Of a stretch of DNA of 62,457 nucleotides, positions 5,411 to 51,192 are shown one piece after another. The stretch comes from Kiloniellaceae bacterium (GTDB lineage: Bacteria; Pseudomonadota; Alphaproteobacteria; Kiloniellales; J153). The notes beneath the pieces are model-generated. The model was not told where the DNA came from and made no database searches. It saw only the letters and a list, made by a program, of their open reading frames with translations. A program made the position numbers and the translations under genes. The stretch lies in assembly GCA_021776215.1 (NCBI GenBank), contig JAJFGI010000028.1, forward strand, positions 1 through 62,457, written 5' to 3'. Position 1 is the first letter of the stretch; each line of letters opens with the position of its first letter.

Positions 5411-8400
5411 ATGACCGAGGATCTGTCCTGGGGGCCGGCGGACGAGTCTGCCGCGAAGACCGAGTCCACCGGCGCCACGAATAACGGTGCCGTTTCGGGC
5501 ACCGAGGGCGCCGAGACGCTGGTCGGCCAAGCCGCCATTCTCGTGCAGGCCCCGCCGCCAGACACCGTGGTGACAATTCCGGTGGTGCCCGGACAGCGCT
5601 ACGTCATCGACTTCGATCCTGCCGCGGCTCAGATCGTTGTCGCCGGCGACGACCTGATCCTGACCTTCGCCAATGACGGTCGGATTGTTTTCCAGGACAT
5701 CGGCGCCATCGATCCCGCACTGGAAGCGCCGATCTTCGAAATTGCCGGAGCCGATGTGCCGGCCTCGGTTCTTTACCAGCAGGCGGTCGCTCTGGCCGGC
5801 CCTGCCGCGACGGTCGAGGGGCAGCCGACCCTGGAGACCGCGGCCGGCCCGGGCGCCGGGCCCGGCGCGCAGGGTACCGGCGCGACCCAGTACAGCGACG
5901 ATACCGGCCAGACCATCGACCTGCTCAATCCCCAAGGCGTTATTCCCGGCGTCGAGCGCGAGTTCGGCCTAATCACCCTGGAAAATATCGATCTGTTGGA
6001 GGAGCAGGAGGCGCTCCTGGTCGTGGGAAGCGTCGGCGATCCGACGGTGTCGATTTCCGGCAGCGGCGATGGCGGCTTCAAGGAAGATGCGCCCAACAAT
6101 GTGGCGATCACGGCGGCGGTCGCGGATTCGACCGATCAGCTCACCTCCATCGTCGTCGAGGGTTTGACCTGGGGCATCGCGCCGGCGGAACTGGCGGCGC
6201 TGGAGGCGGAGGCGGATGTCGCCAGCGTGACCTTCGTCGGCGGCACCTTGACGATCACCTTCGTGCCGGGCGTGGAAACCTTCGCCTACTTCGCGCTGAT
6301 CATGACTCCGCCGGAGGATACGGACGTCGACTTGCTGGGCACGATCACGGCGAACGCCCAGGATAAGACGAATCCCGCCCTGACCAGCAGCACCGCGATT
6401 GGGTTCACCTTCGTCGTCGACGCGGTTCTCGACTTCCAGCCGGAGATATCGCAGGGCTCGGCGCCGTCGGTGGGGGAGAGCGACGTCGCCCAGGACATCA
6501 GCCTGGGTCTTAGTTTTTCGTCGGTCAATGCGGGCTTTCCGCTATCGGGAGCCGGCGGCCCCGACGACGACGGCTCGGAGTCGACGACGGTCGAGATCGA
6601 AATCTCGGCGGGCACCCTGCAATTCGACGGCAGCGAGCCGGCCGGCGTATCGCTCGCCTTTAACGGCGGCACAGGCCGCTGGGAACTGACCGGCTACACC
6701 AATGACGCCGAGTTGGGCCAGGCGATCAATGCCCTGAGCATAAACGTCCCGGCGGGCTTCGACGGTGACATTACGGGAACGATCTTCACCCGGACGGCCG
6801 AGGCAAACACGCCCGAGGGAGCGGCGCCCGGCAGCGGCCAGGAACCCGAGACATCCGACAATGTGCGCGAAGGTACGTTCGAATTCAGCGCGACCGTTAG
6901 AGGAGACATTAGCCAACCAACGGTGGCGATTTCCGGCAGCGGCGATGGCGGCTTCAAGGAAGATGCCCCCAACAATGTAGCGATCAGTGCGTCTGTCGCG
7001 GATTCGACCGATCAACTCACTTCCATCGTCGTCGAGGGTCTGACCTGGGGCATCGCTCCGGCGGAACTGACCGCGCTGGAAGCGGACGCGGATGTCGCGA
7101 GCGTGACCTTCGTCGGCGGCACCTTGACGATTACCTTCGTGCCGGGGGTGGAGAGCTTCACCTACAGCGCCCTGACCATGACCCCGCCGGAGGACACGGA
7201 CGTCGACTTGCTGGGCACGATCACGGCGAATGCCCAGGATAAGACGACACCCGCCCTGACCAGCAGCACTGCTGTCGGGTTCACCTTCGTCGTCGATGCG
7301 GTTCTCGATTTCCAGCCGGAGATATCGCAGGCAGTGGCGCCGACGGAGGCGGAGAGCGACGTCGCGCAGGACATCAGCCTGGGTCTTAGTTTTTCGACGG
7401 TCAATGCCGGTTTTCCGTTCTCGGGAGCCGGTGGGCCTGACGACGACGGCTCGGAGTCGACGACGGTCGAAATCGAGATATCGGCGGGGACCCTGCAATT
7501 CGACGGCAGCGAGCCGGCCGGCGTATCGCTCGCCTTCAATGGCGGCACCGGCCGCTGGGAATTGACCGGCTACGCCAATGACGCCGAGCTGGGTCAGGCG
7601 ATCAATGCCCTGAGCATAAACGTTCCGGCGGGCTTCGATGGCGTCATTACGGGAACGGTCTTCACCCGGACGGTGGAAGCAAACACGCCCGAGGGCGCGG
7701 CGCCCGGCAGCGGCCAGGAGCCCGAGACATCCGATAACGTGCGAGAAGGCGAGTTCGCCTTCAGCGCGACCGTCGAAGGAAGCGCCGGCGAGCCGACCGT
7801 ATCGATTTCCGGCGGCGGCGATGGCATCTTCAAGGAAGATACTAGCGGCGAGGTCACGTTCTCGGCGGCAGTCGCGAATTCAACCGACGAGTTGACATCA
7901 TTGGAGATCTCGGGGCTTACCTGGGGCGTCGCCGCCAGCGAATTGACTGACTTGGAAGCGCTGGCGGACGTGGCGAGCGCGACTTTCGTGGGCGACACAC
8001 TGACGATCACGTTCGTGGCAGGTGTCGAGAGCTTTAACTACTCGGCCCTGACCGTAACTCCGCCAGCGGATACGGATGTCGACTTGTCGGGGGTGGTGAT
8101 CACGGCAAATGTCCAGGATAAGACGACGCCGGCCCTGACCGCCAGCAACTCCGCTGAGACCACATTCGTTGTCGACGCAGTGCTCGACTTTCAGCCGGAG
8201 GTATCGCAGGTCTTGGCGCCGTCGGTGGGCGAGAGCGACGTCGCGCAGGACATCAGCCTGGGTCTTAGTTTTTCGACGGTCAATGCCGGTTTTCCGTTCT
8301 CGGGAGCCGGCGGCCCCGACGACGACGGGTCGGAGTCGACGACGGTCGAAATCGAGATATCGGCGGGGACCCTGCAATTCGACGGCAGCGAGCCGGCCGG

Positions 8401-11326
8401 CGTATCGCTCGCCTTCAATGGCGGCACCGGCCGCTGGGAATTGACCGGCTATGCCAATGACGCCGAGCTGGGTCAGGCGATCAATGCCCTGAGCATAAAC
8501 GTCCCGGCGGGCTTCGACGGCGTAGTCACGGGCACGATCTTCACTCGGACGGCGGAAGCCAATACGCCCGAGGGCGCGGCGCCCGGCAGCGGCCAGGAAC
8601 CCGAAACATCCGACAACGTGCGCGAAGGCGCGTTCGAATTCAGCGCGACCGTCAGGGGCGATATCGGCGTTCCGGAAGTCAGTATCGTCGTCAACAGCAC
8701 CGATGCCGGCGCGTACTTTAAGGAGGACCTGCCACACGACGTCACCCTCTCGGCCTCGGTCAGCAATTCGACCGACGAGCTCACGTCGTTGGTCGTCGAG
8801 GGCCTGACCTGGGGCGTTTCAGGAGGGGAGCTGAGCGATCTGGAAGCATTGGCCGATGTGGCGAGCGCGACCTTCGTCGGCGGCACGCTGACGATCACGT
8901 TCGTGCCGGGGGTGGAAAGCTTTACCTATACCGAGCTGACCATGACGCCGCCGGAGGACACGGACGTCGATCTGTCGGGTGTGGTGATCACCGCGAATGC
9001 CCAGGACAAGACGACCCCGGCTCTGACCGCCAGCAATTCCGCCGGGACGACCTTCGTCGTCGATGCGGTGGCCGATGGGGGTGTCCTGGTCGATACCAGC
9101 GGTATTCCGGTCTCCGACGCCGGCGCGCCGGTCTCTCTTGGCTTGACCCTGACCACGGCGGTGGGCAATCCGGCCAATCCGGCCGGCGATGCGCAAAACC
9201 CCGGCGGGTTCGACACCGACGGGTCCGAGAGCGTGACCAGCGTGGTGGTGACCCTGAGCGGCATCGGTGTGGCCGACGATTCGGATGCCGCGCTGCTCTT
9301 CGACGATACCGGGTTGGTCATCACCGCCAACCACGTGGCGGGCTCGCTGGTGTGGGAGTTCTTGGGGTCGGAGGCCGATTTGCAGGCCCTGATGACCACC
9401 CTGCAGGTTGATCCAAGCAATGCCTTCGAGGGCACCATCGACGTCGCCGTCGCGGTGACCACCACCGAGGCGAATACGCCACAGGGCGCGGCGCCGGCAA
9501 GCGGACAAGAGCCCGAGACGAGCGACAACACCATCACCGAAACATTCAATTTCTCGGTCACGGTGACCGATACGGCGCCGGTCGCGGTCGATGACACGGA
9601 CGGCGGGCCGGAGGTCGGGAATACCAACCTGATCATCGTCTTCGACCGCTCCGGCAGCATGGGCGATAATCCGAGCACCGTCGGCTTCTCCGACCGCATT
9701 AATCTGGCGCGGGCGGCGATTGCTAACCTGCTTCATGCGGTCGGGCCGGACGGGAACGTCAACGTGATGATCGTTGATTTCAGCAGCAGCGCGTCGACGT
9801 CCGGCTGGCTGACCACCGCCGTGGAGGCCAATGCCTATCTGGGCAGCTTGCAGTTCGGTGGCACCACCAACTACAACGCCGCCATCAATTTGGCCCAGAC
9901 AGCGTTCGACGTTTCAATGAATCCGCCGACGAGCGGCAACAATGTGACCTACTTCCTCTCTGACGGTAAGCCGAATCCGGTTGCTACGGGCTTGGACCTC
10001 GGCGAGCAGACGACTTGGGAAACTTTCCTCGCGGCGAATAACATGCCGGCCTTTGCGATCGGCATCGGCGGCGGCGTCACCACCACCGAACTGGCCCCCA
10101 TTGCTCACGATCCGAACGATCCGGCGGGCGCGGCGAATACGCCAATCCTCGTGACGACCGAGGGCGAAATCATTAATCTCCTGGTCAACATAAGCGGCAC
10201 CGCTTTCAACGGCAACGTGCTGACCAATGACCTTCCTGGTGCCGACGGTTTCGGATCGCCGGCAATCACGCAGTTGGCTCTCAATGGCGTCGCGACCACC
10301 GGGTTCACCAGCGCGTTCAGTGTGGCGGTTGCATCTGTCGCCGGCATGATCACGCTGACCGGCTCGATCGGCGCCGACGATTACTGGGTGTTGACCCTCG
10401 ATACCGCCGATGCAGGTGCCGGCAACTACCAGCTCACGCTGCTGCGGCCTTTGCCGCACACTGTGGACGGCGGTGTCGGTAGTCTCGTGTTCGATTACAC
10501 CATTGTCGACGGGGATGGCGATATCGACAGCGCATCGCTTTCCTTCAACATCAACGATGTGCCGGGGGCCGGCGTCGGCTTGCCGCAAATCATCGATACG
10601 GCGAACAACAATGGCGTTCTCAACGGCACCGATGCGGACGAAATCCTGGCGGGGGGTGCCGGCAACGACATCCTCAATGCCGGTGGCGGCAACGACCACC
10701 TTTACGGGGGCAACGGCAACGATATCCTGAATGGCGGCGACGGGGATGACATTCTCATCGGCGGCGACGGCAACGACGAGCTCAACGGGGGTGCCGGCAA
10801 CGACGTTCTCAACGGCGGCGCTGGCATCGACATCCTCGACGGCGGTGCCGATAACGACGCGCTCTATGGCGGCTTGGGCAACGATACGCTGATCGGTGGA
10901 TTGGGCGACGATCTCCTGATCGGCGGTGGCGGCAACGACATCCTCGACGGCGGACCCGGCGCCGATATCATGCACGGCAGCAATTCGCCCGGCAACGGCG
11001 GCTCCGTGGATTTCCGATACAGCCTTGCCGATCTTGGCACGGGTGTCGATACAATCATCGGCTTCGACGATGACGGCTCGGGCGAGGATCAGCTCGATCT
11101 GCGCGACATCTTCACGGGGCCGGAGAATTTTGCGACACTGATCGCTGGTGGCTTCCTGATCCTCGACAACAGCGCCAACGTCGGGGGCGGTCCCGGCAAC
11201 GACACCGTGGTCAGCATTGACCTCGACGGGGCCGTCGGGATAGGTGCCCCGGTGATTTTGGTCAACATTCTGGACGTCAATACCCTCGACAGTCCGTTGG
11301 ATAGCTTCAACTTCATCGTCAACTAG
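5411..11326 (+). CDS. Giant LapA-like RTX adhesin (type I secretion substrate) with tandem repeats, a VWA domain and an RTX block
   Basis: Track ORF, 1971 aa. I see no cysteine in the translation, and the protein is acidic. It has an N-terminal ~140-aa module followed by TAAG, then four ~292-aa tandem repeats. The VWA MIDAS motif DRSGS lies at 9644-9658. Twelve consecutive GGxGxDxLx nonapeptides lie at 10649-10978. The C-terminal tail is typical of T1SS substrates. T1SS genes and a LapG-like gene lie adjacent. Confidence 0.9.
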   Translation: MTEDLSWGPADESAAKTESTGATNNGAVSGTEGAETLVGQAAILVQAPPPDTVVTIPVVPGQRYVIDFDPAAAQIVVAGDDLILTFANDGRIVFQDIGAIDPALEAPIFEIAGADVPASVLYQQAVALAGPAATVEGQPTLETAAGPGAGPGAQGTGATQYSDDTGQTIDLLNPQGVIPGVEREFGLITLENIDLLEEQEALLVVGSVGDPTVSISGSGDGGFKEDAPNNVAITAAVADSTDQLTSIVVEGLTWGIAPAELAALEAEADVASVTFVGGTLTITFVPGVETFAYFALIMTPPEDTDVDLLGTITANAQDKTNPALTSSTAIGFTFVVDAVLDFQPEISQGSAPSVGESDVAQDISLGLSFSSVNAGFPLSGAGGPDDDGSESTTVEIEISAGTLQFDGSEPAGVSLAFNGGTGRWELTGYTNDAELGQAINALSINVPAGFDGDITGTIFTRTAEANTPEGAAPGSGQEPETSDNVREGTFEFSATVRGDISQPTVAISGSGDGGFKEDAPNNVAISASVADSTDQLTSIVVEGLTWGIAPAELTALEADADVASVTFVGGTLTITFVPGVESFTYSALTMTPPEDTDVDLLGTITANAQDKTTPALTSSTAVGFTFVVDAVLDFQPEISQAVAPTEAESDVAQDISLGLSFSTVNAGFPFSGAGGPDDDGSESTTVEIEISAGTLQFDGSEPAGVSLAFNGGTGRWELTGYANDAELGQAINALSINVPAGFDGVITGTVFTRTVEANTPEGAAPGSGQEPETSDNVREGEFAFSATVEGSAGEPTVSISGGGDGIFKEDTSGEVTFSAAVANSTDELTSLEISGLTWGVAASELTDLEALADVASATFVGDTLTITFVAGVESFNYSALTVTPPADTDVDLSGVVITANVQDKTTPALTASNSAETTFVVDAVLDFQPEVSQVLAPSVGESDVAQDISLGLSFSTVNAGFPFSGAGGPDDDGSESTTVEIEISAGTLQFDGSEPAGVSLAFNGGTGRWELTGYANDAELGQAINALSINVPAGFDGVVTGTIFTRTAEANTPEGAAPGSGQEPETSDNVREGAFEFSATVRGDIGVPEVSIVVNSTDAGAYFKEDLPHDVTLSASVSNSTDELTSLVVEGLTWGVSGGELSDLEALADVASATFVGGTLTITFVPGVESFTYTELTMTPPEDTDVDLSGVVITANAQDKTTPALTASNSAGTTFVVDAVADGGVLVDTSGIPVSDAGAPVSLGLTLTTAVGNPANPAGDAQNPGGFDTDGSESVTSVVVTLSGIGVADDSDAALLFDDTGLVITANHVAGSLVWEFLGSEADLQALMTTLQVDPSNAFEGTIDVAVAVTTTEANTPQGAAPASGQEPETSDNTITETFNFSVTVTDTAPVAVDDTDGGPEVGNTNLIIVFDRSGSMGDNPSTVGFSDRINLARAAIANLLHAVGPDGNVNVMIVDFSSSASTSGWLTTAVEANAYLGSLQFGGTTNYNAAINLAQTAFDVSMNPPTSGNNVTYFLSDGKPNPVATGLDLGEQTTWETFLAANNMPAFAIGIGGGVTTTELAPIAHDPNDPAGAANTPILVTTEGEIINLLVNISGTAFNGNVLTNDLPGADGFGSPAITQLALNGVATTGFTSAFSVAVASVAGMITLTGSIGADDYWVLTLDTADAGAGNYQLTLLRPLPHTVDGGVGSLVFDYTIVDGDGDIDSASLSFNINDVPGAGVGLPQIIDTANNNGVLNGTDADEILAGGAGNDILNAGGGNDHLYGGNGNDILNGGDGDDILIGGDGNDELNGGAGNDVLNGGAGIDILDGGADNDALYGGLGNDTLIGGLGDDLLIGGGGNDILDGGPGADIMHGSNSPGNGGSVDFRYSLADLGTGVDTIIGFDDDGSGEDQLDLRDIFTGPENFATLIAGGFLILDNSANVGGGPGNDTVVSIDLDGAVGIGAPVILVNILDVNTLDSPLDSFNFIVN
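5837..5848 (+). other. TAAG di-alanine motif (candidate LapG-type cleavage site) in the adhesin, residues 143-146
   Basis: Codons acc gcg gcc ggc fall in frame within ...QPTLETAAGPGAGPGAQG..., directly followed by a Gly/Pro/Ala linker. The motif matches the (T/A/P)AA(G/V) pattern known for LapA-type substrates. Confidence 0.55.
6041..6916 (+). repeat. Adhesin tandem repeat unit 1 (876 bp, 292 aa)
   Basis: The unit starts at PTVSISGSGDGGFKEDAPNN and ends at ...EANTPEGAAPGSGQEPETSDNVREGTFEFSATVRGDISQ. It stays in frame, with a period of 876 bp to the next unit. Confidence 0.9.
6917..7792 (+). repeat. Adhesin tandem repeat unit 2 (876 bp)
   Basis: Near-identical to unit 1 at both DNA and protein level (PTVAISGSGDGGFKEDAPNN...). 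Confidence 0.9.
7793..8671 (+). repeat. Adhesin tandem repeat unit 3 (879 bp)
   Basis: PTVSISGGGDGIFKEDTSGE... The second half (VVDAVLDFQPE...SESTTVEIEISAGTLQFDGSEPAGVSLAFNGGTGRWELTGY) is nearly identical to units 1-2. Confidence 0.9.
8672..9577 (+). repeat. Adhesin tandem repeat unit 4 (906 bp, diverged)
   Basis: PEVSIVVNSTDAGAYFKEDLPHD... The first half is conserved and the second half has diverged, but it still ends in EANTPQGAAPASGQEPETSDN...FNFSVTVTDTA. Confidence 0.8.
10649..10978 (+). repeat. RTX calcium-binding block: 12 consecutive nonapeptide repeats
   Basis: GGAGNDILN AGGGNDHLY GGNGNDILN GGDGDDILI GGDGNDELN GGAGNDVLN GGAGIDILD GGADNDALY GGLGNDTLI GGLGDDLLI GGGGNDILD GGPGADIMH, counted by eye. 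Confidence 0.9.
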
Positions 11327-11408
11327 GGTCCCTGAATCAGAGGTGGGGCATAAAAGGTAACAGAGCCAAGCTTATCCAATAGCCTTCTGAGCCGACAGTC
11401 TCGGTTCG

Positions 11409-11443
11409 CGGGGGGTGCAGGTAGCGCCCCCCGATTTCTTTTT
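11409..11443 (+). terminator. Rho-independent terminator of the adhesin gene
   Basis: Stem CGGGGGG/CCCCCCG with an 11-nt loop, followed by ATTTCTTTTT; about 80 nt after the stop codon. Confidence 0.6.
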
Positions 11444-11487
11444 GACGGCCGAATGAAACCTGCAACCGGGACTGGGTGGCGCCGCCT

Positions 11488-11610
11488 AGCCTGGTCAATA
11501 TTGAGCGCATCGACGGGGGCGCCGGCAATGACACGGTCATCGGCACCGCCGGCAATTCGGTGACCGATCTGCTTAACGAACTCGGTCCGACCGGCGCTGA
11601 AGTCGCCTAG
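11488..11610 (+). pseudogene. Relic of an RTX-protein C-terminus (no start codon, about 40 codons)
   Basis: My translation gives SLVNIERIDGGAGNDTVIGTAGNSVTDLLNELGPTGAEVA*. It contains one canonical RTX nonapeptide, GGAGNDTVI. The frame is closed by stops at 11422 and 11443 and has no ATG. It lies just past the adhesin terminator. Confidence 0.5.
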
Positions 11611-12671
11611 CGACTTTGCGGGATCGCCAGGATCAGGCGTCCCAGCAAGGCAACGGATGCGTCGCCATCGACCGGCAGCCCGGCTTTCGCCTGAAACGCC
11701 GATATGGCGGCTTTCTCGGCTGCCGGGTCATCGGTCGCGGCCGGCGCCAGCAAGCCCAACGTCGTCAACAACGCGTCGATCGTGCGCCGCGGAATAGGCG
11801 TAGCCGGGCCGCCGCCGGCCGGGGCGCGGCCGTTCGACCACGTGGCGCCGCCACGCTGCGCCGCCGCCACGGCTTGTGCGGGCCCCTTGCCCGGCTGAAA
11901 CAGGGCCACCGATAGGGCGCCGGCGGTCTCTCCAGTCTTGGTTTGGGCGTTGAGGACGTGCAGGCCGGTCACCCGGACCTCGCCGTCCACGAAGACGATC
12001 AGCGGCGAGCCGGAATCGCCCTTCGCCAGATGGCAGGAATGCAGGAGTCCGGACTCGCCGCGAAAACTCCCCAGGATTTCGCAGCCGAGATTGACGGACA
12101 TGATGTTGCTGCGGCCCTGGCTGTAGCCGGCCTGGACCAGCCGCGCCTCGCCGCGGCGGATGCGCGCGGCAAGTTCCTCGTCCAGCCGGCGCAGCCCGAG
12201 CCAGCCGGCCTGTCGGCCGATGGGCACCTCCAGCTCGAGCACGGCCCAGTCGACGACGGCATTGTCTGTCGCCGCGCCGGCGCGGTAGTCGAAGCGACGG
12301 TCTCGTTCATAGCCGCGGACCGGCGAATGGATGAGGTAGGTATCGCGCTGATAGCCGGCCACGAAATGAACCTCGCCAGGGCCACGCCAGCGTCCCTCGA
12401 TGGGGTCGTAGAGGCAGTGCGCCGCCGTCAGGACGGCGGTTTCACTGATCAGGAAGCCGGTGCAATGGCCGCGCCCACCGACGTTGACCCGGCCGATGGC
12501 GCTCCACGGATACTCCATGGCGTTCACTTCGAAGCGCTCGCCCAACGCCGCCGCATGGCTGGTGGCGAGGATGGAACCCGCGAGCAGGATCACGACGGCA
12601 CGTCGCGTCGCCCGGATGCACCGCGCGGTAAACCGGCGCCTGCCGTCCTTGGGCTTGTCGAAAGTCGTCAT
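11607..12671 (-). CDS. Secreted trypsin-like (S1, Glu-specific-endopeptidase-like) serine protease with a C-terminal peptidoglycan-binding domain
   Basis: Track ORF 11607..12755. The start was chosen at MTTFDKPKDGRRR... before a hydrophobic signal/anchor. Catalytic motifs are TAAHC (His) and GDSGSP (Ser). The C-terminal AAISAFQAKAGLPVDGDASVALLGRL resembles a PG_binding_1 domain. Confidence 0.75.
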   Translation of the reverse strand: MTTFDKPKDGRRRFTARCIRATRRAVVILLAGSILATSHAAALGERFEVNAMEYPWSAIGRVNVGGRGHCTGFLISETAVLTAAHCLYDPIEGRWRGPGEVHFVAGYQRDTYLIHSPVRGYERDRRFDYRAGAATDNAVVDWAVLELEVPIGRQAGWLGLRRLDEELAARIRRGEARLVQAGYSQGRSNIMSVNLGCEILGSFRGESGLLHSCHLAKGDSGSPLIVFVDGEVRVTGLHVLNAQTKTGETAGALSVALFQPGKGPAQAVAAAQRGGATWSNGRAPAGGGPATPIPRRTIDALLTTLGLLAPAATDDPAAEKAAISAFQAKAGLPVDGDASVALLGRLILAIPQSR

Positions 12672-12732: not shown

Positions 12733-14847
12733 TCAGTCGACCGCGACGCTGGCAATCAGCTTTTCGCCGGCGACCGAGCCCACGGCTTCGCGCAGCGCCG
12801 CCACCACCGCCGGGTCGTAGCGGTCCGTGTTCTGCTCAAGAATATCGAGCGCCTCGCCCGCAGCGATGCCGGCGCGATAGGAGCGTGGCTCCACCCGGGC
12901 ACAGAACACGTCGCAGGCGCCAAGAATCCGCGCGGTAAGGCGGATCTGATCGCCGGACAGGCCGGCGGGATAGCCCTTGCCATCGAGACGTTCGTGCATC
13001 TGATACACGGTTTCGAGCACGGGCAATCCAAAGTCGATCTCGCGCAGGATGGCGGCGGCATGGTCCAGGTGCTCCTGCATCTCCGCAATCTCGCCTTCGC
13101 TCAGGCGGCCGGGCTTGTTGAGGATCTCCCGGGAGATCGCCAGCTTGCCGATCTGCGATAGGTTGGCGGCGATCTCGACCGTGGCGATATCCTCGGCGCT
13201 GGCGTCAAGGCGCTGCGCGACGGCGGTGGCGAATCCGGCCACCCGGCGCGAATGGCCGCCAAGATAGGGATCGCGCAACTCGATGGCCCGCACCAAGGCG
13301 GTGACCATCTGCTGAATGGCCTTCTCCTTCATGCGTTGCTGTTCGACCAGTTCGGTCACATCGCGGGTCACCGAGACGATGCCTGACGTTTTCCCGTGAT
13401 CACCCTGATAGGGAACCTTGGAGATCTGGAAGTAGTGCAGCTTCTTGCCCAGATAGATCTCTTCATTGACGGTCACGGCGGCGCCCGAGGCCACCGCTCT
13501 TTGGTCAGAGAGCCGCAGGCGCTGGGCGGTGCCCGCGCCGAAAATCGCGCTATCGTCGAGGCCGATAATCTTGTCCACATCCCGGCCAAGGGCCCGGGCG
13601 AACGCCGGATTGACGTACTGATAGGTGCCGTCCAGGGCTTTCAATCCGATGTAGTCGGCCATCGTATTGTTGATGCTGTTCAGCAGCTGCTTTTGGGCCT
13701 CGATACGTGCCGCCAGGCGGCGGAACTGATCGGCCAGGGCCGAGCTGTGCTCGTTGGACAAGCGCCACCAGAAGGCGCCAAAGGCGGCGACAACGGCGAG
13801 GACGACGAGAACCGAAACCGCTATAGCCGCCGCCACGAAGCCGGCCAGGGTCTCGTCTACGGCGGCCGCCTCGATTTCTTGCACGATCCACCAAGCCGGT
13901 CCGCTGGCGGCGACGCCGACCGAGTAGACCTGCTGGCCGCCGTCGATGGAGGTGCGGCGGCCAAAGGGAATCGAATGATCCGGCCCATCCAGCTCGAGTC
14001 CCGCGATAGGGCGCAGCGGCGGCACCTCGCCCGGCGTTACGGCGACAAAGTCGCCGTCGTCAAGCTGCACCAGCCGTGGGCGTTCGCCCGGCTGGGAGAG
14101 GGGCGGCGGCGTCAATATCTGACCGAGCGCGGCAGAGACCGGCGCGGTGAGCAACAGGACCCCGACAGGGCGCTCCGCCGCAACCTCGCTCTGGGCCCGA
14201 AAGATCGGCGCGTGGACGTCCAGAACCAATCCCGTCGCCGCGGCGCGGGCGGGCCCATAACGCAACACCCCGGTCTCGAACACCTCGGCGGCGATGGCCT
14301 GCTGCGCCGGTGAGATGGGGTCGGCACCGGCGCTGGTAACATAGGCGATACCGTTGCGGCCGACGACGTATGCTGCCAGGAAATCGGCGCTTTTCGTAAA
14401 GTCGGTCAAGACCTGCTGCATGAACGGAAGTTGCGCCGCCAGGGGCACGCCCATGCCCGAGGGCACCGCGGCGTCCGGTGGCACGGGCTGATCGCGGGTC
14501 GCCAGGTCCGAAATATCGCCGCCGGACAGATCCATCTCGGTGGCGAACAGACGGAACAGCTCGCTGCCGACAACCCGGTCCGCCGGCCGCGTCATGCCAT
14601 CGAGCCAGGCGGCGATGACATCCCCGCGGCCGTCCGCCAGGATCTGCAGGCGGCGCTCGAACTCGCCCACCACCTCGGTACGCTTGACCTGTATGGCGAT
14701 GAACGGCACGACGATGGCGATGACAACCACGATCGTGATCACCAACGCGCCGCGAGTCAGCGTGCGCGAAGCCGCCGGCCGGAAATCCTTGGGGTCGATA
14801 TCAGCGGATATGAGATCGGGAGCCGCCGCTTCGCCGGAGCTGGCCAT
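12733..14847 (-). CDS. Transmembrane sensor: periplasmic Cache-like domain, PAS domain, and an HD-GYP domain with a degenerate HD dyad (candidate c-di-GMP receptor)
   Basis: Track ORF, 704 aa. TM1 is LVITIVVVIAIVVPFIAI and TM2 is FVAAAIAVSVLVVLAVVAAFGAFWW, flanking about 280 periplasmic residues. A PAS-like segment (LNSINNTMADYIGLKALDGTYQYVNPAF...) follows. The HD-GYP domain reads GGHSRRV...AANLSQIGK...MHERLDGKGYPAGL...CDVFCA. The gene starts 20 nt after the stop of the LapG-like gene. Confidence 0.85.
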   Translation of the reverse strand: MASSGEAAAPDLISADIDPKDFRPAASRTLTRGALVITIVVVIAIVVPFIAIQVKRTEVVGEFERRLQILADGRGDVIAAWLDGMTRPADRVVGSELFRLFATEMDLSGGDISDLATRDQPVPPDAAVPSGMGVPLAAQLPFMQQVLTDFTKSADFLAAYVVGRNGIAYVTSAGADPISPAQQAIAAEVFETGVLRYGPARAAATGLVLDVHAPIFRAQSEVAAERPVGVLLLTAPVSAALGQILTPPPLSQPGERPRLVQLDDGDFVAVTPGEVPPLRPIAGLELDGPDHSIPFGRRTSIDGGQQVYSVGVAASGPAWWIVQEIEAAAVDETLAGFVAAAIAVSVLVVLAVVAAFGAFWWRLSNEHSSALADQFRRLAARIEAQKQLLNSINNTMADYIGLKALDGTYQYVNPAFARALGRDVDKIIGLDDSAIFGAGTAQRLRLSDQRAVASGAAVTVNEEIYLGKKLHYFQISKVPYQGDHGKTSGIVSVTRDVTELVEQQRMKEKAIQQMVTALVRAIELRDPYLGGHSRRVAGFATAVAQRLDASAEDIATVEIAANLSQIGKLAISREILNKPGRLSEGEIAEMQEHLDHAAAILREIDFGLPVLETVYQMHERLDGKGYPAGLSGDQIRLTARILGACDVFCARVEPRSYRAGIAAGEALDILEQNTDRYDPAVVAALREAVGSVAGEKLIASVAVD

Positions 14848-14867: not shown

Positions 14868-15650
14868 TCAGTTACGTGCGGCCAAACCCTGGTACGGCTG
14901 CGTGCTTGGCTTCTTGAAGCCGCCGATATGGGCCCACCGCGTGGTTTCATTCATGGAGTACTGCGGTACATAGTGCTTATACATCGAATGAGATAGAATG
15001 AGATTCGATAGGCTATCAAGTATTAATATGTCGTCGTCGTCGTAAATCGCCAGGACCGCGTGGCCGATACCCCGGATTTCGTCCATCAGGATGACGATAC
15101 GCATCTCCTCTTTATTGAAGCCTAATTTCCGCAGCGCGAAGTACTTAGCGATCGAATAGTCTTCGCAGTCTCCGGAACGGGTCATGAATTCCCGCGGTGT
15201 GGCCCAGTACTCGCTTAGACCATAGACTTCGGTATCCAGTTTGTATGGCCAGCGGTTGAAGAAGTCGTTGACCGCCGCCAGCTTGTCGCGCCGGCCAAGG
15301 CTCGTCGCCGATGTGATGATCCTGCGCCAGTTCTTGAGGACCGGGGAGCCGCACTCGACAGGGCTTGCGACACACCGATCGAAGGCCGGCTCCTCGGCCT
15401 GCATGGCGGCCAGTACCCGGGTCCATTGTGGCAGGCCCGCGAGCGAGTCGGATCCTACCTCGACCGAGCCGAACACAGCGGTCCCTTCGGTGTCGGTCAG
15501 ACGGGCACTCTGGCCAGCGCGCAGGACGTCGGCGAGCGTCTTTTCCCCGGCCGCGTTGCTGCGCGCGGCCCCGGTCAGGGTGACTGCCAAAAAAGCTGCA
15601 GAGGCGGCTAGAAAGCCTCGCCGGGTCAATGCGGTACGCTCCCTGGACAA
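14868..15650 (-). CDS. lapG: LapG-like periplasmic bacterial transglutaminase-like cysteine protease (BTLCP, Peptidase_C93 family)
   Basis: Track ORF, 260 aa. It has a twin-arginine signal, LTRRGFLAASAAFLAV. The candidate catalytic triad context is SGDCEDYSIAKYFALRKLGF (Cys), GIGHAVLAIY (His) and ILILDSLSN (Asp). The neighbourhood of T1SS genes and an RTX adhesin fits this call. Confidence 0.8.
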   Translation of the reverse strand: MSRERTALTRRGFLAASAAFLAVTLTGAARSNAAGEKTLADVLRAGQSARLTDTEGTAVFGSVEVGSDSLAGLPQWTRVLAAMQAEEPAFDRCVASPVECGSPVLKNWRRIITSATSLGRRDKLAAVNDFFNRWPYKLDTEVYGLSEYWATPREFMTRSGDCEDYSIAKYFALRKLGFNKEEMRIVILMDEIRGIGHAVLAIYDDDDILILDSLSNLILSHSMYKHYVPQYSMNETTRWAHIGGFKKPSTQPYQGLAARN

Positions 15651-15775
15651 CGCTGCCGGCCCGGCGTGAAGTTGGGCCCGCGACCCTCTTAGGATCGCCG
15701 GTCCGCCTTAATGGAGTGTTTATACTAGTGGTTTACGGAAGCTCTGAAAATCGTTGCAAAACAGTATCTTAATGG

Positions 15776-15791
15776 GTTAACCATGGTTAAC
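15776..15791. promoter_or_regulatory. Perfect 16-bp palindrome GTTAACCATGGTTAAC between the HlyD-family gene and the LapG-like gene
   Basis: I verified by hand that the sequence equals its own reverse complement. It lies in the 183-bp gap upstream of the lapG-like/HD-GYP/protease string. Confidence 0.4.
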
Positions 15792-15833
15792 TTCTATGGC
15801 TTTTTTGGGGTCCGCCCCGCTTGGGGCCGCCCC

Positions 15834-17153
15834 TCACCGCTCGCGCAGGGCCCGCTGTTTTGCCTTCAGGATGGGCTTCAGGAGATAGTCGAGGACCGTC
15901 TTCTTGCCGGTCAGAATCTCGACCGTGGCGGTCATGCCGGGGATGATGGGCAGCTCGTTGCCCTGATGGCTCAGGGTATTGCGCTCGGTCCGCAGGTAGA
16001 CGCGGTAAAAGCTCTCGCCCTCTTCGTCGCGGATGGTATCGGCGCTGATCTGTTCCAGTTTGCTTTTCAGCCCGCCATAGATCGAGAAGTCATACGCCGC
16101 CACCTTGATCATGGATTCCTGCCCGGGGCGCAGGAAGGCGATGTCTTTCGGACGAATCCGGGCTTCCACCAGCAGGCTGTCGTCGAGCGGCACGATCTCG
16201 ACGATATCCTGTCCGGGGCGGATCACGCCGCCGACGGTGTTGACCTTGACCTCCTTCACGGTGCCGCGGACCGGCGAGCGCACCTCGGTGCGGGTGACGC
16301 GGTCCTCGCCGGCAAACAGTGTCTCGCGCACCGACTTGAACTCGGCGCGGACCTTGTTGAGCTCGTTCGACGCCTCCGCCTTGGCGGCCAGGCGCACCTG
16401 CAAAATGCGCTGGGTGGCCTCTTCCGCGGCGGTGGTCAGCCGGGGAATGCTCAGCCGGATGGTGCTGATCTCGCCTTGCAGATCGGCGACCTGGCGTTCG
16501 ATGCGCAGCAAGTCGATGCGCGGGACCACGCCGTTGCGCACCAACGGCTCGGTGATCGCCAATTCCTCGCGGGCCAACTGCAGGCTGCGTTCCAGCTGCT
16601 TGCGGCGGCTGGCCATCTCGCCGACCTCTTGCTTGCGCTGCGAGGCTTGCGCCTCGAGCACCGAGATTTGAGCCTTTAGCTGCTGACGGCGGGCCTCGAA
16701 CAAGGCCTTCTGGTCGGCGGCGGCGCCCGGCGCTTCCTTCAGGATCTCGTCGGAATACACCAGATCGTCGCCTTCCTGCTCGGCCTCCAGGCGCTGAACG
16801 GTGGCCTGCAACGTATAGTATTGGGTCTGCAGGTCGCGAAAGTTCGCCTGCGCCGCCGTGTTGTCGATGCGCAGCAAGATGCTGCCGCTCTCGACGATAT
16901 CGCCCTCATGCACCAGGATCTCGGACAGAATACCGCCTTCCAGATTCTGGATGATCTGGGTCTTGCTGGAGGGGACGATGCGACCCTCGCCCCGGGTCAC
17001 CTCATCGAGCACGGCGAAGTTCGCCCAGACCACGAAGGTGACGAAGAACAACAGGGTCATCAAAGTCAGAATATAGGCGAAGCCATGCCCGCGCCGCCGG
17101 GCGGCGGCATGCACGTCCGGCATGAAATGAAGGTCTTCGTTGCGGCTAGCCAT
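15834..17153 (-). CDS. HlyD-family type I secretion periplasmic adaptor (LapC-like)
   Basis: Track ORF, 439 aa. It has an N-terminal anchor FAYILTLMTLLFFVTFVVWANFA, a long coiled-coil, and a C-terminal barrel ending in the family-typical block TGKKTVLDYLLKPI. It starts 19 nt after the ABC gene. Confidence 0.9.
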   Translation of the reverse strand: MASRNEDLHFMPDVHAAARRRGHGFAYILTLMTLLFFVTFVVWANFAVLDEVTRGEGRIVPSSKTQIIQNLEGGILSEILVHEGDIVESGSILLRIDNTAAQANFRDLQTQYYTLQATVQRLEAEQEGDDLVYSDEILKEAPGAAADQKALFEARRQQLKAQISVLEAQASQRKQEVGEMASRRKQLERSLQLAREELAITEPLVRNGVVPRIDLLRIERQVADLQGEISTIRLSIPRLTTAAEEATQRILQVRLAAKAEASNELNKVRAEFKSVRETLFAGEDRVTRTEVRSPVRGTVKEVKVNTVGGVIRPGQDIVEIVPLDDSLLVEARIRPKDIAFLRPGQESMIKVAAYDFSIYGGLKSKLEQISADTIRDEEGESFYRVYLRTERNTLSHQGNELPIIPGMTATVEILTGKKTVLDYLLKPILKAKQRALRER

Positions 17154-17171
17154 GGGCTGTTATCCTGGCGC

Positions 17172-19652
17172 TCAGGTCTTGGCGGCGCGGATCTGGCCCT
17201 GCTTCAGGGCGTTGAGCACGTCGTCCTTGGGTCCGTCCGCGACGACCCTGCCGCCGTCGATGACCACCAGGCGATCGACCAGACTGAGCAACGAGCTGCG
17301 GTGGGTAACAAGAAGCAGCGTCTTGCCCGGCAGGATCTGCTCCAAGCGGCGCTTGAACAACGCCTCTGTCGAGTTGTCCATGTTGCTGGTCGGCTCGTCC
17401 AGCAGGATGATCGGCGGGTCGAGCAGCATGGCGCGGGCGATAACGATCGCCTGGCGCTGGCCGCCGGATAGGCCCATGCCCCGTTCGCCCACCTGCAGGT
17501 CGAAGCCGTGCGGATGGGTGCGCAAGAAATCGCTCACGCCGGCAACATGGGCCGCGCGCAAAACCGTCGCATCGTCCACGTGCGGCGCGCCGAAAGCGAT
17601 GTTGTCGCGCACCGTCCCGAAGAACAGATAGTTGTCCTGCGACACGTAGCCGACATTGCGCCGCAAATCCGCTGGATCGATCTGACGAATATCGGTGCCG
17701 TCCATGAGCACGGCGCCCTCCGCCGGCTCGTAAAGGCCGATCAGCAAGCGCGCGATGGTACTTTTGCCTGAGCCGATCCGGCCGAGGATGCCGACCTTTT
17801 CGCCCGGCTTGATCTTGAAGGAGATGCCGTCGAGCGCTGGATTTTCCTGTCCCGGATACTTGAATGAAACCTTCTGGACATTGATCTGGCCGCTGAGCCG
17901 CGGACGATGCAGGAAGCTCTTGTCCAGCGGCCGCTCGACCGGGGCCTTCATGATCGTATCCAGAGATTGCAAGGCCACCCGCGATTGCTGCAGGCGCGTC
18001 AGCATGGCGGCGATCGATCCCAGCGGGGCCAGAGCGCGACCGGTCAGAATGGTCGCCGCCACCAGGGCGCCCATGGTGATCTCCCCGGCGGCGATCAGAT
18101 GCACGCCATACACCACCACGGCGACGGTGACCAACTGGATCGACACCTGCGCGAATGTCGTCGCCAGGCCGGACAAGAAGCGCGCCTTGCCGGACGACTC
18201 GGCGGTCAGGCCGACGAAACGCTCCCAGGCGCGTTGCACCCGGCCCTCGGCCGCCGTGGCCTTGATGGTTTCCAGCCCATCGATGGTCTCGACCAGCAGG
18301 GCGTGCTTCTGGGTCGCCTCGCGATAGGTTTTTTCGACCACGCGGCGCAGCGGAAACTGCAACAGCGCGCCGACGAGAATGACGGCGGGCACTGCGGCCA
18401 GCGGGATGAAGGCGACAGGGCCGGCGACCAGCCAGATGACCGCCAGGAAAAGCAGGATGAACGGCAAATCGACCAGGGCGACCACGGTGCCGGAGGTGAA
18501 GAACTCGCGCAGCGATTCGAACTCGCGCAGGTTGTTGGCCATGGCGCCGGTGGACGGCCCCTTGCTCGCCAGTTTCATGGACATGAGCTGTTCGAGAAGG
18601 CGGCTGGCGATGATCACGTCCGCGTTCTTGCCTGCCACGTCGACGAAGTAGGTGCGGATGTTGCGCATGACGAATTCGAAGACGAAGACGATGGTTACCC
18701 CGAGCGCCAGCACCCAGAGAGTCTCCACCGCGTTGTTCGGCACCACGCGGTCATAGACGTTCATGATGAACAGCGGGCTGGCCAGGGCGAAGCTGTTGAT
18801 CAGGATCGAGGCGAGCAGGACGTGGCTGTAGATCGGCCAGAAGCCGGCCAGGGTGCCCCAGAACCACGACCGCGGCTGGCTGAGCCGGATCTCCGAGACG
18901 CGCTGGTCGAACTTGTACTCCGGCCGGGCGAATATGGCGTAGCCGGCGTATTGCGGCTCCAGCTCGACCAGATCCACGGCCTTTTTGGCGCTGCCCCCCT
19001 CCGGCAGAATGATCTCGGCCCGGCCGCCCTCCAGATAGCGCAGTAGCACGCAGGCGTTCCCGCCCTTGAGAAGAAGGATGCAGGGCAAGGTGACCGGCAG
19101 GATCTGACTCAGCTTGGACCGCCGGGTGATGCGGGCGTCCAGGCCGGCCCGCGCGGCAGCGCGCACCGCCATCTCCGGGCTGAAGCGGTGGTCTTGCGGC
19201 AGACCGGCCCGCAACGCCTCGGCGGAGATGGGGCGCTGCAGCAGGGTCGCCAGGGTCGTCAGGGTGGCCAGAAGCGGCTCGATGAAATCGACCGCCGACG
19301 GCGCGACCTGCCAGTCATGCGGACCCTCTATGATCTGGTCTTTGGAGAGCGGGGGACCGTCTGCCGGTGTGTGGGCGGCAGCGGGCTTGGCGCCGATCGC
19401 ACTGACAGGGGCAGGTCCCGTTCCGCTGTCGGCCTTGTTGCCGGCGACAGCGGACGTTTCCCGGCCGGCCGTGGCAATTCGGCCACGGACCTGTGCAATA
19501 CCCTGGGGTTCGTGAGGGGGAGCTCCCGTCAGCGCCGTCTTGGCGGTTGCGCGGGCCAAGCGATCCGCCGAGAGTCCACCGGTTTCGTCCTTATTGGCTG
19601 CCATGCAGGCGCGTTGCCTTCTTGTAATGTCGTTTGGTTCGATCCACGGCAC
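17172..19652 (-). CDS. Type I secretion ABC transporter (permease/ATPase with an N-terminal C39-like domain; LapB-like)
   Basis: Track ORF, 826 aa. Walker A is GRIGSGKST, the signature is LSGGQRQ, and Walker B is ILLDEPTS. It has six TM segments and a C39-like domain region (LPCILLLKGGNACVLL). An Ala/Pro/Gly-rich N-terminal extension of roughly 110 aa precedes this. The true start is uncertain; an alternative Met lies at 19604. Confidence 0.9.
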   Translation of the reverse strand: MPWIEPNDITRRQRACMAANKDETGGLSADRLARATAKTALTGAPPHEPQGIAQVRGRIATAGRETSAVAGNKADSGTGPAPVSAIGAKPAAAHTPADGPPLSKDQIIEGPHDWQVAPSAVDFIEPLLATLTTLATLLQRPISAEALRAGLPQDHRFSPEMAVRAAARAGLDARITRRSKLSQILPVTLPCILLLKGGNACVLLRYLEGGRAEIILPEGGSAKKAVDLVELEPQYAGYAIFARPEYKFDQRVSEIRLSQPRSWFWGTLAGFWPIYSHVLLASILINSFALASPLFIMNVYDRVVPNNAVETLWVLALGVTIVFVFEFVMRNIRTYFVDVAGKNADVIIASRLLEQLMSMKLASKGPSTGAMANNLREFESLREFFTSGTVVALVDLPFILLFLAVIWLVAGPVAFIPLAAVPAVILVGALLQFPLRRVVEKTYREATQKHALLVETIDGLETIKATAAEGRVQRAWERFVGLTAESSGKARFLSGLATTFAQVSIQLVTVAVVVYGVHLIAAGEITMGALVAATILTGRALAPLGSIAAMLTRLQQSRVALQSLDTIMKAPVERPLDKSFLHRPRLSGQINVQKVSFKYPGQENPALDGISFKIKPGEKVGILGRIGSGKSTIARLLIGLYEPAEGAVLMDGTDIRQIDPADLRRNVGYVSQDNYLFFGTVRDNIAFGAPHVDDATVLRAAHVAGVSDFLRTHPHGFDLQVGERGMGLSGGQRQAIVIARAMLLDPPIILLDEPTSNMDNSTEALFKRRLEQILPGKTLLLVTHRSSLLSLVDRLVVIDGGRVVADGPKDDVLNALKQGQIRAAKT

Positions 19653-19901
19653 CCACCCCTGGCCATGCCGGCACCTTGTGTGTCACCGGGCGGTTCGCCA
19701 TGCCTTCGTGCCGCGGCAACCTATCGCCGAACGCACTGCCGCGCCGATGGGTTCCGTCTAGGCTTAGCCTAAGAAATTTCGGAAAAGGTTAATGTATTTC
19801 GCGCTCCGGTGGCTAGACCTAGTATGGGACCGGATGGCCTATTAAGGGCTAAAACCGCCCCAATGTTACACAATTGCCGTCTTTGCCGGGTCCTGGTATG
19901 A

Positions 19902-19917
19902 TTAACGGTTAATTAAC
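19902..19917. promoter_or_regulatory. TTAA-N7-TTAAC motif (CtrA-box-like) in the divergent T1SS promoter region
   Basis: The sequence TTAACGGTTAATTAAC was read directly. It lies about 145 nt upstream of the TolC-family start and about 250 nt upstream of the ABC gene start. Confidence 0.35.
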
Positions 19918-20060
19918 GGGCCAAGTGAAGGATGGGCTCAACGCGTTGACTTTTTGGCGAAACCCGGCGTAATACATGCTCCATTTGTGGCATGTCTGGT
20001 CAGGTATTGGCCATAAGCGGGCCCACAAGCTGGATGTGCAAGGGTAAACGGGGGAACACT

Positions 20061-21446
20061 ATGCGTTGGTCGCACAGAAGACTGACCTATCACTTTAGAG
20101 CGGCGCTTCTGGGAACTGCGTTGGTCATTCCCGGCGCGTTCGCTGCCCAGGCGATGAGCCTGAAAGAGGCGATTCAGCTCGCCATATCCACCAATCCGGA
20201 TATCGGCATCGTCGCGAGCAATCGCGAGGCTGTGGACGAGGAGCTGAGACAGGCGCGGGGCCTGTATCTGCCGCAGATCGACCTGGCCGCAGGAATCGGC
20301 AAGGAGCGCACCAATGATCGGACGACACGGGCGCGGGCTGGCGGCTCCACGGATGGGTTGACCCTGACCCGGCAGGAAGCATCGTTGACGCTGCAGCAGC
20401 GAATCTTCGACGGTTACGAGACGGACAGCACGGTGCGGCGCGAAAAGGCTCGAGTCGAGTCGGCGGCCAGGCGCGTTGCCGAGAACAGCGAGTTCCTGGC
20501 ACTGGACGCGATCGGGGCCTACGTCGAGGTGCTGCGCCAGCGGGAGTTGGTGCGGTTGGCCGAGGAGAACCTGCGGGTTCATTCCGGCATCCTCGGCTCG
20601 CTGAGACAGCGCTTGGAGGGTGGCGGCGGCAGCCGCGCCGATGTGGCCCAGACCGAGGCGCGCAATTCGCGTGCCCGGGCCACGATTACGCAAACGCTCA
20701 ATGATTTGCGGGATGCCGAGGCCGCCTTTACCCGTATCGTCGGCCAGTTCCCCGACGCGTTGGAATCGCCGGAGTTTCCCACGGGCGTGTTGCCGGGGGA
20801 TCTGGATGCGGCGGTCGGGCTGGCAGGCACCAACAACCCGACCACCCGAATCTTCGAGGCGGACGTGCGCTCCGCCGATGCCGAGGTTTCGGTCGCCGAG
20901 GTACCGTTCTATCCGGCCGTCTCGCTGGAGGCGCAGTCGGAGTACAACGACGGGCGCGACGGTATCAACAGTTACGAGTTCAACAATCAGGTGATGCTGC
21001 GCGTCCGCTGGAATCTGTTCCGCGGCGGCATCGACCGGGCGGCGCGGCAAGAGGCCCTGGCGCGTTTGTCGGAGAGCAAGAACCGCCGCCTGCGGTCGTA
21101 CCTCGAGGCGCAGCAGGAAATGCGTCAGTCCTGGTTCGCCCTCGAAGCCAGTCGGCAGCGAGTCGAGGATCTGTCGGATTCGGTCAGGTTCAATATGGAA
21201 ACCCGGGACGCCTATCGGCAACAGTTCGAGGTGGCGCAGCGGACCCTGCTCGACGTCCTCGATGCCGAGAACGAGCTTTTTGTCTCAAGCGGCCAACTCG
21301 TGACAGCCCAGACCAACGAGATCTTGGCGTCCTACCGCATTCTGGCGGTTTCGGGGGCGCTGCTGACCACCCTGGGCGTGCCAGCGCCGGAGCAGGCCGT
21401 CGTCGAAGACAAGACATGGCTGCAAGGCATCGGCGTTGCTGATTAG
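20061..21446 (+). CDS. TolC-family outer-membrane channel of the type I secretion system (LapE-like)
   Basis: Track ORF 19992..21446. The start was chosen at MRWSHRRL... (SD gggggaa), with signal peptide ...LVIPGAFAAQA. The internally duplicated TolC architecture is visible (LKEAIQLAISTNPDI..., later AVGLAGTNNPT...). Confidence 0.85.
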   Translation: MRWSHRRLTYHFRAALLGTALVIPGAFAAQAMSLKEAIQLAISTNPDIGIVASNREAVDEELRQARGLYLPQIDLAAGIGKERTNDRTTRARAGGSTDGLTLTRQEASLTLQQRIFDGYETDSTVRREKARVESAARRVAENSEFLALDAIGAYVEVLRQRELVRLAEENLRVHSGILGSLRQRLEGGGGSRADVAQTEARNSRARATITQTLNDLRDAEAAFTRIVGQFPDALESPEFPTGVLPGDLDAAVGLAGTNNPTTRIFEADVRSADAEVSVAEVPFYPAVSLEAQSEYNDGRDGINSYEFNNQVMLRVRWNLFRGGIDRAARQEALARLSESKNRRLRSYLEAQQEMRQSWFALEASRQRVEDLSDSVRFNMETRDAYRQQFEVAQRTLLDVLDAENELFVSSGQLVTAQTNEILASYRILAVSGALLTTLGVPAPEQAVVEDKTWLQGIGVAD

Positions 21447-51190: not shown

Positions 51191-51192
51191 GG

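Follow-up and report, generated by a model that had tools for sequence, protein, structure and literature searches.

The window analysed here is the whole of contig JAJFGI010000028.1 (62,457 nt), and this contig is the part of the genome that was covered. Between positions 5411 and 21446 it carries seven genes that most probably specify a DvhDG-type (Lap-like) system for the display and release of an adhesin in a Kiloniellaceae-like alphaproteobacterium, and we put the probability of this reading at about 0.85. It is built on homology, domain architecture, degenerate motifs, conserved nucleotide-site residues and gene linkage, all drawn from the present analysis. At the centre of the locus is a transmembrane (TM) protein with a degenerate HD-GYP domain, encoded next to a LapG-like protease of the BTLCP (bacterial transglutaminase-like cysteine protease) family. 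The host appears to lie close to the Kiloniellaceae, judging from the nearest matches to this DvhD-like protein, which come from Kiloniellaceae metagenome-assembled genomes (MAGs; 87% identity) and from Pelagibius and Kiloniella (50-55%). The locus is a further member of the DvhDG class, from an uncultured marine alphaproteobacterium, and lends support to the published idea that a dead HD-GYP receptor can run the Lap logic in LapD's stead.

In Pseudomonas-type Lap systems, the BTLCP LapG cuts the adhesin at a di-alanine, and LapD holds LapG inactive through a degenerate GGDEF-EAL module that binds cyclic di-GMP (c-di-GMP). The Desulfovibrio vulgaris system has been reconstituted in Pseudomonas fluorescens, where DvhD gives c-di-GMP-dependent control of the LapG-like protease DvhG, and DvhD was described as "structurally different but functionally analogous" to LapD (Karbelkar et al. 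2024, PMC10990149). The dissociation constant for c-di-GMP was 322 nM for a DvhD fragment comprising PAS and HD-GYP (PMC10990149) and lies at ~0.1-0.3 µM across both papers on the system (PMC10990149, PMC13090378). The second of these (Font et al. 2026, PMC13090378) reported three DvhD structures and a DvhD dimer that holds three c-di-GMP molecules, two in "canonical" sites and one in a "bridging" site. When the nucleotide binds, the stalk helices move apart, and this is the proposed driver of inside-out signaling. In DvhD the HD motif reads SQ and the HH motif MN, and no hydrolysis was seen with any metal tested, while DvhG, a BTLCP that depends on calcium, cleaves DvhA and DVU1545 at the di-alanine of [T/A/P]AAG (PMC13090378).

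The first-pass annotation of this DNA had proposed a variant wiring of the inside-out switch that had not been characterized. An HD-GYP protein indeed stands in LapD's place and is most probably a c-di-GMP-responsive regulator, but the wiring itself has been characterized (PMC10990149, PMC13090378). Experiments published in 2024-2026 defined the class, and alphaproteobacterial relatives are already in the supplement of the later paper. Supplementary Data 1 lists DvhD homologues and their neighborhoods from Pelagibius marinus, P. litoralis, Denitrobaculum, five Kiloniella species, Fodinicurvata and Sneathiella (PMC13090378), and the window protein has its nearest named relatives among these genera. 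What is new relative to the two DvhDG papers is the linkage of an S1 protease gene in Kiloniellales, together with a diverged bridging site and a changed residue at the position of Glu668 of DvhD. Genes were called from an open reading frame (ORF) listing combined with Pfam and NCBIfam profile scans, and the features of the locus, which includes a type I secretion system (T1SS), are as follows.

5411-11326, plus strand: LapA/DvhA-like RTX adhesin, 1971 aa (Pfam HemolysinCabind, E 1.4e-27; VWA, E 1e-7).
5411-5836, plus strand: N-terminal region of the adhesin, residues 1-142 (alignment to related adhesins).
5837-5848, plus strand: predicted TAAG cleavage motif, adhesin residues 143-146 (consensus [T/A/P]AAG).
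11409-11433, strand unassigned: terminator-like GC-rich hairpin of 10 pairs with a T-run, a consensus match only.
11607-12671, minus strand, ORF extendable to a TTG at 12755: S1 protease, 354 aa (Pfam Trypsin, E 5e-10; Trypsin_2 and PG_binding_1).
12733-14847, minus strand: DvhD-like TM/PAS/HD-GYP protein, 704 aa (Pfam HD_5, E 1e-40; PAS_4).
14868-15650, minus strand: LapG/DvhG-like BTLCP, 260 aa (Peptidase_C93, PF06035, E 9e-18).
15834-17153, minus strand: T1SS membrane-fusion protein, HlyD/LapC-like (TIGR01843, 426 bits; cut-off 209).
17172-19652, minus strand: T1SS ABC permease/ATPase of the LssB/LapB family, 826-aa ORF (TIGR03375, 987 bits).
19992-21446, plus strand: TolC-family T1SS outer-membrane protein (TIGR01844, 307 bits; Pfam OEP, E 6e-49).

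The HD-GYP protein has the architecture of DvhD of D. vulgaris Hildenborough: a first TM helix (residues 33-54), a periplasmic dCache domain (~63-327), a second TM helix (336-361), a PAS domain (397-501) and a degenerate HD-GYP domain (510-702). When its sequence was searched against the PDB, it matched 9rc0 (PAS/HD-GYP, E 1.2e-79), 9rbz (HD-GYP with c-di-GMP, E 2.6e-52, 44% identity) and 9rc2 (periplasmic dCache, E 3.7e-35, residues 63-327, ~31% identity). According to their entry titles, all three are fragments of D. vulgaris DvhD, deposited as "HD domain/sensory box protein", and the matches jointly span residues 63-702 of the window protein. These matches make the window protein homologous to DvhD along its whole length, although it is only 44% (HD-GYP) and ~31% (dCache) identical and comes from an alphaproteobacterial host rather than from the Desulfovibrionales. 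Matches to active HD-GYP enzymes (PmGH, 4mcw; PA4781, 4r8z; V-cGAP3, 5z7c) had E values of 1e-32 to 1e-14.

The structural comparison pointed in the same direction. An AlphaFold2 model of the protein (47 homologues, mean pLDDT 82) was compared with the PDB by Foldseek, and the top three entries were again 9rc0, 9rbz and 9rc2, with target-normalised TM-scores of 0.78, 0.86 and 0.88, the last for the dCache entry 9rc2. Further chains of 9rbz ranked next, followed by active HD-GYP enzymes and PAS/LOV proteins, and no LapD structure was found among the 50 best matches. Pfam scans of the whole protein or of residues 54-335 gave no match to LapD_MoxY_N, HAMP, GGDEF or EAL at E<=5. The receptor is unrelated to LapD, with a dead HD-GYP domain where LapD has a dead EAL domain. 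Pfam returned no dCache match on the periplasmic domain, and the fold was evident only through the structural comparison or the homology to 9rc2; the periplasmic domain of DvhD likewise has a dCache fold that is unrecognizable from sequence (PMC13090378).

The HD motif of the HD-GYP domain is degenerate in the manner of DvhD. Window numbering equals DvhD numbering plus 5, and the HD motif is replaced by S564-Q565, with LSQIGK in the window aligning with LSQVGK in DvhD. The HH motif reads M617-H618, with Met in place of the first His and the second His retained, and relatives have MH, MY or MN at this position. The GYP motif is intact. SQ at the HD position was found in 116 of 116 full-length homologues, and all 78 DvhD-like loci combine [SA]Q with M[HYN]. 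Of four unrelated HD-GYP hits that served as controls, all retain HD and three retain HH. This contrast yields an easy sequence-based rule by which such receptors can be annotated. The window protein shares its fold and GYP motif with active HD-GYP phosphodiesterases such as PmGH, PA4781 and V-cGAP3, but with its HD motif lost and its HH motif changed to M-H it is predicted to be a receptor and not an enzyme.

The canonical nucleotide site is largely kept. Five of the eight canonical c-di-GMP contacts of DvhD (Y523, L577, K582, Y621, M646, R650, Y652 and E668) are identical in the window protein, and the retained contacts are Y523 (Y528 in the window), L577 (L582), Y621 (Y626, the Tyr of GYP), R650 (R655) and Y652/R653 (Y657/R658). 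The substitutions R650A and Y652A/R653A were among those most harming stabilization of DvhD by c-di-GMP (PMC13090378), and all of these residues are retained, so the window protein preserves the canonical contacts that proved important by experiment. Across the homologues, the cytoplasmic nucleotide site is the most strongly conserved part. By analogy with DvhD and given the lost HD ligands, the protein should bind c-di-GMP rather than hydrolyse it. On a wider view, the canonical contacts R650, Y652/R653, Y621, L577 and Y523 are conserved across classes, while the bridging site of D. vulgaris is not.

The protease encoded immediately upstream is related to LapG. The BTLCP matched the LapG structures 4u65_E (E 7e-20) and 4fgo (E 6e-18), and its GDCEDY, the His of GHAVL and the Asp of LDSL align in register with both. 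From this alignment, D161-C162-E163 supply calcium-site residues and the catalytic Cys162, and the triad is completed by His198 and Asp212. However, the protein scored 98 bits with the NCBIfam LapG equivalog model, under the cut-off of 320 bits, and by this score it is LapG-like and not a LapG equivalog, as is the case for DvhG. DvhG is 33% identical to LapG, and the pocket for the LapD tryptophan was reported to be occluded in DvhG-type enzymes (PMC13090378). The N-terminus of the window BTLCP, TRRGFLAASAAFLAV...AAG, fits the twin-arginine consensus by eye, with TRRGFLA at residues 9-15, and the protein is apparently exported to the periplasm by the twin-arginine translocation (Tat) pathway; the DvhG orthologues of Pelagibius likewise have Tat signals according to SignalP (PMC13090378 supplement). 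In this the window BTLCP differs from D. vulgaris DvhG, where an N-terminal TM helix is found together with a linker of 180 residues, a feature that is probably particular to strain Hildenborough (PMC13090378) and that the window protein lacks.

Strong physical clustering ties the two genes together. A pattern scan of one genome per species returned 79 related loci (numbered with the prefix L where one has to be named), and their neighborhoods were scored by tblastn with the window proteins. The patterns used in this genome scan were specific to the alphaproteobacterial clade and returned no Desulfovibrio loci, and the link to Desulfovibrio rests on the PDB sequences and the supplement of PMC13090378. 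The first-pass annotation had staked its proposal on the recurrence of the BTLCP/HD-GYP adjacency, and it does recur: the BTLCP gene lies immediately upstream of the dvhD-like gene, on the same strand, in 65 of the 66 loci with enough flank, over a range from 87% down to 38% identity. This adjacency is not due to chance. ABC and HlyD genes were found upstream in 53 of 57 loci, and Kiloniella laminariae shows the same order as the window, namely ABC, HlyD, Peptidase_C93, DvhD-like and Trypsin, with a convergent gene for a 2083-aa VWA adhesin.

In the window, the leftward operon runs in the order ABC - HlyD - BTLCP - TM/PAS/HD-GYP - S1 protease, with the adhesin gene converging on it and the TolC gene divergent from the ABC gene. 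The profile matches bear out this arrangement as first described, and exactly 20 nt separate the BTLCP stop from the HD-GYP start, again as had been claimed. As in the Dvh locus, the receptor gene directly follows the BTLCP gene, downstream of the T1SS ABC and membrane-fusion protein genes. The hairpin at 11409-11433 sits between the convergent adhesin and S1 protease genes. The T1SS matches TIGR03375, TIGR01843 and TIGR01844 each exceed their family cut-off. The ABC protein had been called "C39-like"; its full-length match to the LssB family (TIGR03375) agrees with this family placement, but no Pfam C39 domain was detected in its N-terminus at E<=5. Positions 1-696 of the TIGR03375 model cover residues 125-820 of the ABC ORF, and the first ~124 residues are Ala/Pro/Gly-rich and fall outside the model. 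Because the LssB model begins at ORF residue 125, the true start is probably downstream of 19652. The statement that the window encodes no GGDEF or EAL protein also stood: no such Pfam domain was found in the seven locus proteins or in 30 other window ORFs (at least 214 aa), and a six-frame search of the window found no GG[DE]EF motif. Features that had escaped the first-pass annotation are the degeneracy of the HD-GYP domain (SQ for HD), the PAS domain and the PG_binding_1 domain of the S1 protease.

The adhesin is the presumed substrate of the BTLCP. Its layout comprises a putative retention module, TAAG, four repeats and a VWA domain, with an RTX block ahead of the C-terminal secretion region, and ORF, Pfam and repeat analyses recovered the Cys-free 1971-aa RTX protein with TAAG, tandem repeats and VWA domain that had been described (0 Cys in 1971 aa). 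The count of RTX nonapeptides had to be lowered, from the 12 claimed to 11 of the strict form GGxGxDxUx. The four tandem repeats are 292-296 aa long, with spacings of 876/876/888 nt; the 876-nt repeats were missed by Tandem Repeats Finder, with its period limit of 500, and were found by a separate repeat search. The VWA domain occupies residues 1406-1569. Within residues 1-142, a putative beta-rich module for periplasmic retention comes first, and between it and TAAG lies a putative helix (VPASVLYQQAVALAG). This N-terminal region had no Pfam match at E<=5 and is 33-34% identical to the N-termini of the adhesins of L021 and L032 (Pelagibius and Kiloniellaceae, respectively). PLETAA is found in the window adhesin and in L032, and PLETAG in L021. 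The cleavage consensus of LapG/DvhG is [T/A/P]AAG, with the scissile bond within the di-alanine (PMC13090378). An RTX adhesin with a VWA domain and a [T/A/P]AAG after the N-terminal retention module (putative in the window adhesin) is also what is seen in DvhA, although the window adhesin gave no match to a serralysin-like domain, unlike DvhA.

Taken together, these features suggest the following model, in which the receptor, by analogy with the D. vulgaris experiments, would bind c-di-GMP, leave it intact and control the protease. The T1SS (LssB-family ABC, HlyD and TolC) would thread the adhesin through the outer membrane, with the N-terminal module staying in the periplasm as a plug. The periplasmic DvhG-like BTLCP would free the adhesin by cutting TA|AG at residues 143-146. 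The dead HD-GYP domain (SQ) of the DvhD orthologue would take up c-di-GMP without hydrolysing it, and nucleotide binding would splay the stalk helices of the dimer, a change that could be relayed through the PAS domain and the TM helices to the dCache domain. At high c-di-GMP, the dCache domain would restrain the BTLCP and the adhesin would be kept plugged in TolC; at low c-di-GMP, the BTLCP would be freed and the adhesin released. This scheme would have much in common with the LapD/LapG/LapA system of P. fluorescens and its orthologues in Legionella, Bordetella, Vibrio and Shewanella, including an adhesin plugged in TolC, a calcium-dependent BTLCP, a di-alanine cut and an LssB/LapB-family ABC protein. 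By analogy, it would also share an inner-membrane receptor with a degenerate enzymatic domain and inside-out control of the protease.

Several observations weigh against this reading. Three of the eight canonical contacts are changed in the window protein (K582 to I587, M646 to R651 and E668 to N673), and the bridging site has diverged (P567 to S572, R569 to E574 and K520 to R525, the last being conservative). The P567T substitution weakened stabilization of DvhD by c-di-GMP, and the authors left undecided whether the bridging site is a DvhD-specific innovation (PMC13090378). Among the relatives, Pro is found at the P567 position in 89 of 116, and the Arg569 position is mostly Glu. With the bridging site diverged and P567T harmful in DvhD, the 3:2 c-di-GMP stoichiometry of DvhD may fail here, and the P567-to-Ser change together with that of the specificity residue E668 to Asn could mean a nucleotide stoichiometry or preference differing from that of DvhD. 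The second His of the HH motif is kept (M617-H618), unlike the M-N of DvhD. The biochemistry of DvhD comes from D. vulgaris only, with the alphaproteobacterial orthologues known from sequence (PMC10990149, PMC13090378), and for the restraint of DvhG by DvhD in Desulfovibrio the support is an AlphaFold 3 model only (PMC13090378). Finally, coverage of one contig leaves room for a canonical LapD elsewhere in the genome.

If such a LapD were encoded on another contig and controlled the BTLCP, the adjacent HD-GYP protein would be incidental and have an unrelated role. The 62 kb covered leave space for this, and the two BTLCP/DvhD pairs found in some genomes (L018 and L021 of Pelagibius marinus) indicate that regulation may be more complex. 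However, an adjacency kept in 65 of 66 loci from 87% to 38% identity is hard to reconcile with an incidental neighbor, and the BTLCP score of 98 against the 320 bits for LapG is as expected of DvhG-type enzymes, for which an occluded LapD-tryptophan pocket has been reported, making this possibility barely credible. Retention of the second His is relevant to a related proposal, that the HD-GYP protein is an active c-di-GMP phosphodiesterase lowering c-di-GMP around a LapD encoded elsewhere. The GYP motif, H532, H593, H596, H618, E619 and D646 are all kept, and H618 is one potential metal ligand more than in DvhD. Yet the HD dyad is SQ or AQ in every BTLCP-linked homologue, while the HD-GYP proteins used as controls have HD/HH; for DvhD, which also carries SQ, none of the metals tried gave hydrolysis (PMC13090378); and the scanned window ORFs include no GGDEF/EAL protein. 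An active enzyme is thus very improbable.

The periplasmic domain raises another possibility. dCache domains are typical ligand sensors, and the dCache fold is borne out here by the homology to 9rc2 and by the model. The protein could then work as an outside-in sensor, in which an extracellular ligand on the dCache domain, and not c-di-GMP, sets the hold on the protease, or, in a mixed version, as a coincidence detector. Signaling by LapD is bidirectional, according to the title of PMC5231407, which lends this idea some support. On the other hand, the crystal of the DvhD dCache domain had no ligand density and its pocket is poorly conserved (PMC13090378), conservation in the homologues peaks instead in the cytoplasmic nucleotide site, and the c-di-GMP dependence of DvhD was demonstrated in vivo (PMC10990149). 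A purely outside-in mechanism is therefore unlikely, though it is partly compatible with control by c-di-GMP through the DvhD-like receptor, the reading that we favor.

The S1 protease gene, the last of the operon, is an addition to the Dvh arrangement, in which no such gene follows dvhD. The most likely start is the ATG at 12671, and the resulting 354-aa protein is identical to a database protein (P0121). Its TAAHC and GDSGSP motifs are intact, and it ends in a C-terminal PG_binding_1 domain; it is predicted to be periplasmic and to bind peptidoglycan. An S1 protease gene lies directly downstream of the dvhD-like gene in 41 of 50 loci at >=50% identity and in 3 of 16 more distant loci. The protease is not discussed in the main text of the DvhDG papers (PMC10990149, PMC13090378), and the gene appears only as a webFlaGs cluster in the supplement of the later one (PMC13090378). 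It could act on the adhesin or on the retained N-terminal plug, for instance by clearing TolC after BTLCP cleavage. Alternatively, it could make a second, c-di-GMP-independent release cut beside the Glu of PLE-TAA(G), a residue shared by the N-termini of the two related adhesins for which an alignment was obtained (L021 and L032). The idea that the protease is Glu-specific comes from a generic COG-derived label of the Joint Genome Institute and was not taken as evidence. We offer as a tentative and rather doubtful suggestion that the Kiloniellales DvhDG systems are a three-component variant with a peptidoglycan-anchored S1 protease, possibly also with a nucleotide stoichiometry or preference different from that of DvhD.

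Several of the surveyed loci depart from the window in their organization. In L001, on a 993-kb metagenomic contig, the T1SS, BTLCP and DvhD genes are the same as in the window and are broken up by insertion sequence (IS) elements. DDE_Tnp_1 elements lie inside the operon (L001 3454-9016), one beside a truncated 477-aa ABC gene and one between HlyD and BTLCP, and the adhesin system of this organism has probably been inactivated by the IS elements. In Pelagibius sp. CAU 1746 (L002 9318-21104), the BTLCP/DvhD-like pair has no adjacent T1SS genes and adjoins a CHASE2-guanylate cyclase gene and a convergent gene for a 2169-aa FecR/RTX protein. Pelagibius marinus has two DvhD-like loci (L018 and L021), each with a BTLCP/DvhD pair, and therefore some genomes run two such switches. 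Kiloniellales-type DvhD-like loci were also found in MAGs labeled Halopseudomonas aestusnigri, Acidimicrobiia, Anaerolineae and Mycobacteriaceae (L026, L057, L067 and L072), for which mis-binned contigs are more likely than true occurrence in those taxa.

Other genes of the window were noted in passing. An OmpA-family protein with its OmpA domain at residues 223-317 is encoded at 3984-4958 on the plus strand, the strand of the adhesin gene that follows ~450 nt downstream, and might be part of the adhesin system via peptidoglycan/outer-membrane anchoring. Beyond the TolC gene, a gene for an RHH_4 (ribbon-helix-helix) protein is found at 22090-22734 on the minus strand and also at 376-1050 of L001, a relative at 63% identity; it may be a conserved neighbor or a regulator. 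Further along, a urea-type ABC transporter cluster (34666-39677) encodes a Peripla_BP_5 protein, two permeases and two ATPases, and a urease operon (50723-55850) encodes UreF, a gamma/beta fusion, the alpha subunit, UreG and UreD, with a formamidase-like DMFA2_C protein and two-component sensors between the two clusters. This region looks like a nitrogen-scavenging island with no relation to the adhesin locus. Lastly, the ORF at 56315-58630 (minus strand, 771 aa) has a HAD domain only at residues 546-731 and an unusual GC content at first codon positions (GC1) of 0.80, and it overlaps the start of a glmS-like ORF (58422-60425). The real gene there probably encodes a HAD hydrolase of ~240 aa, comparable to the glmS neighbor in Kiloniella (L003).

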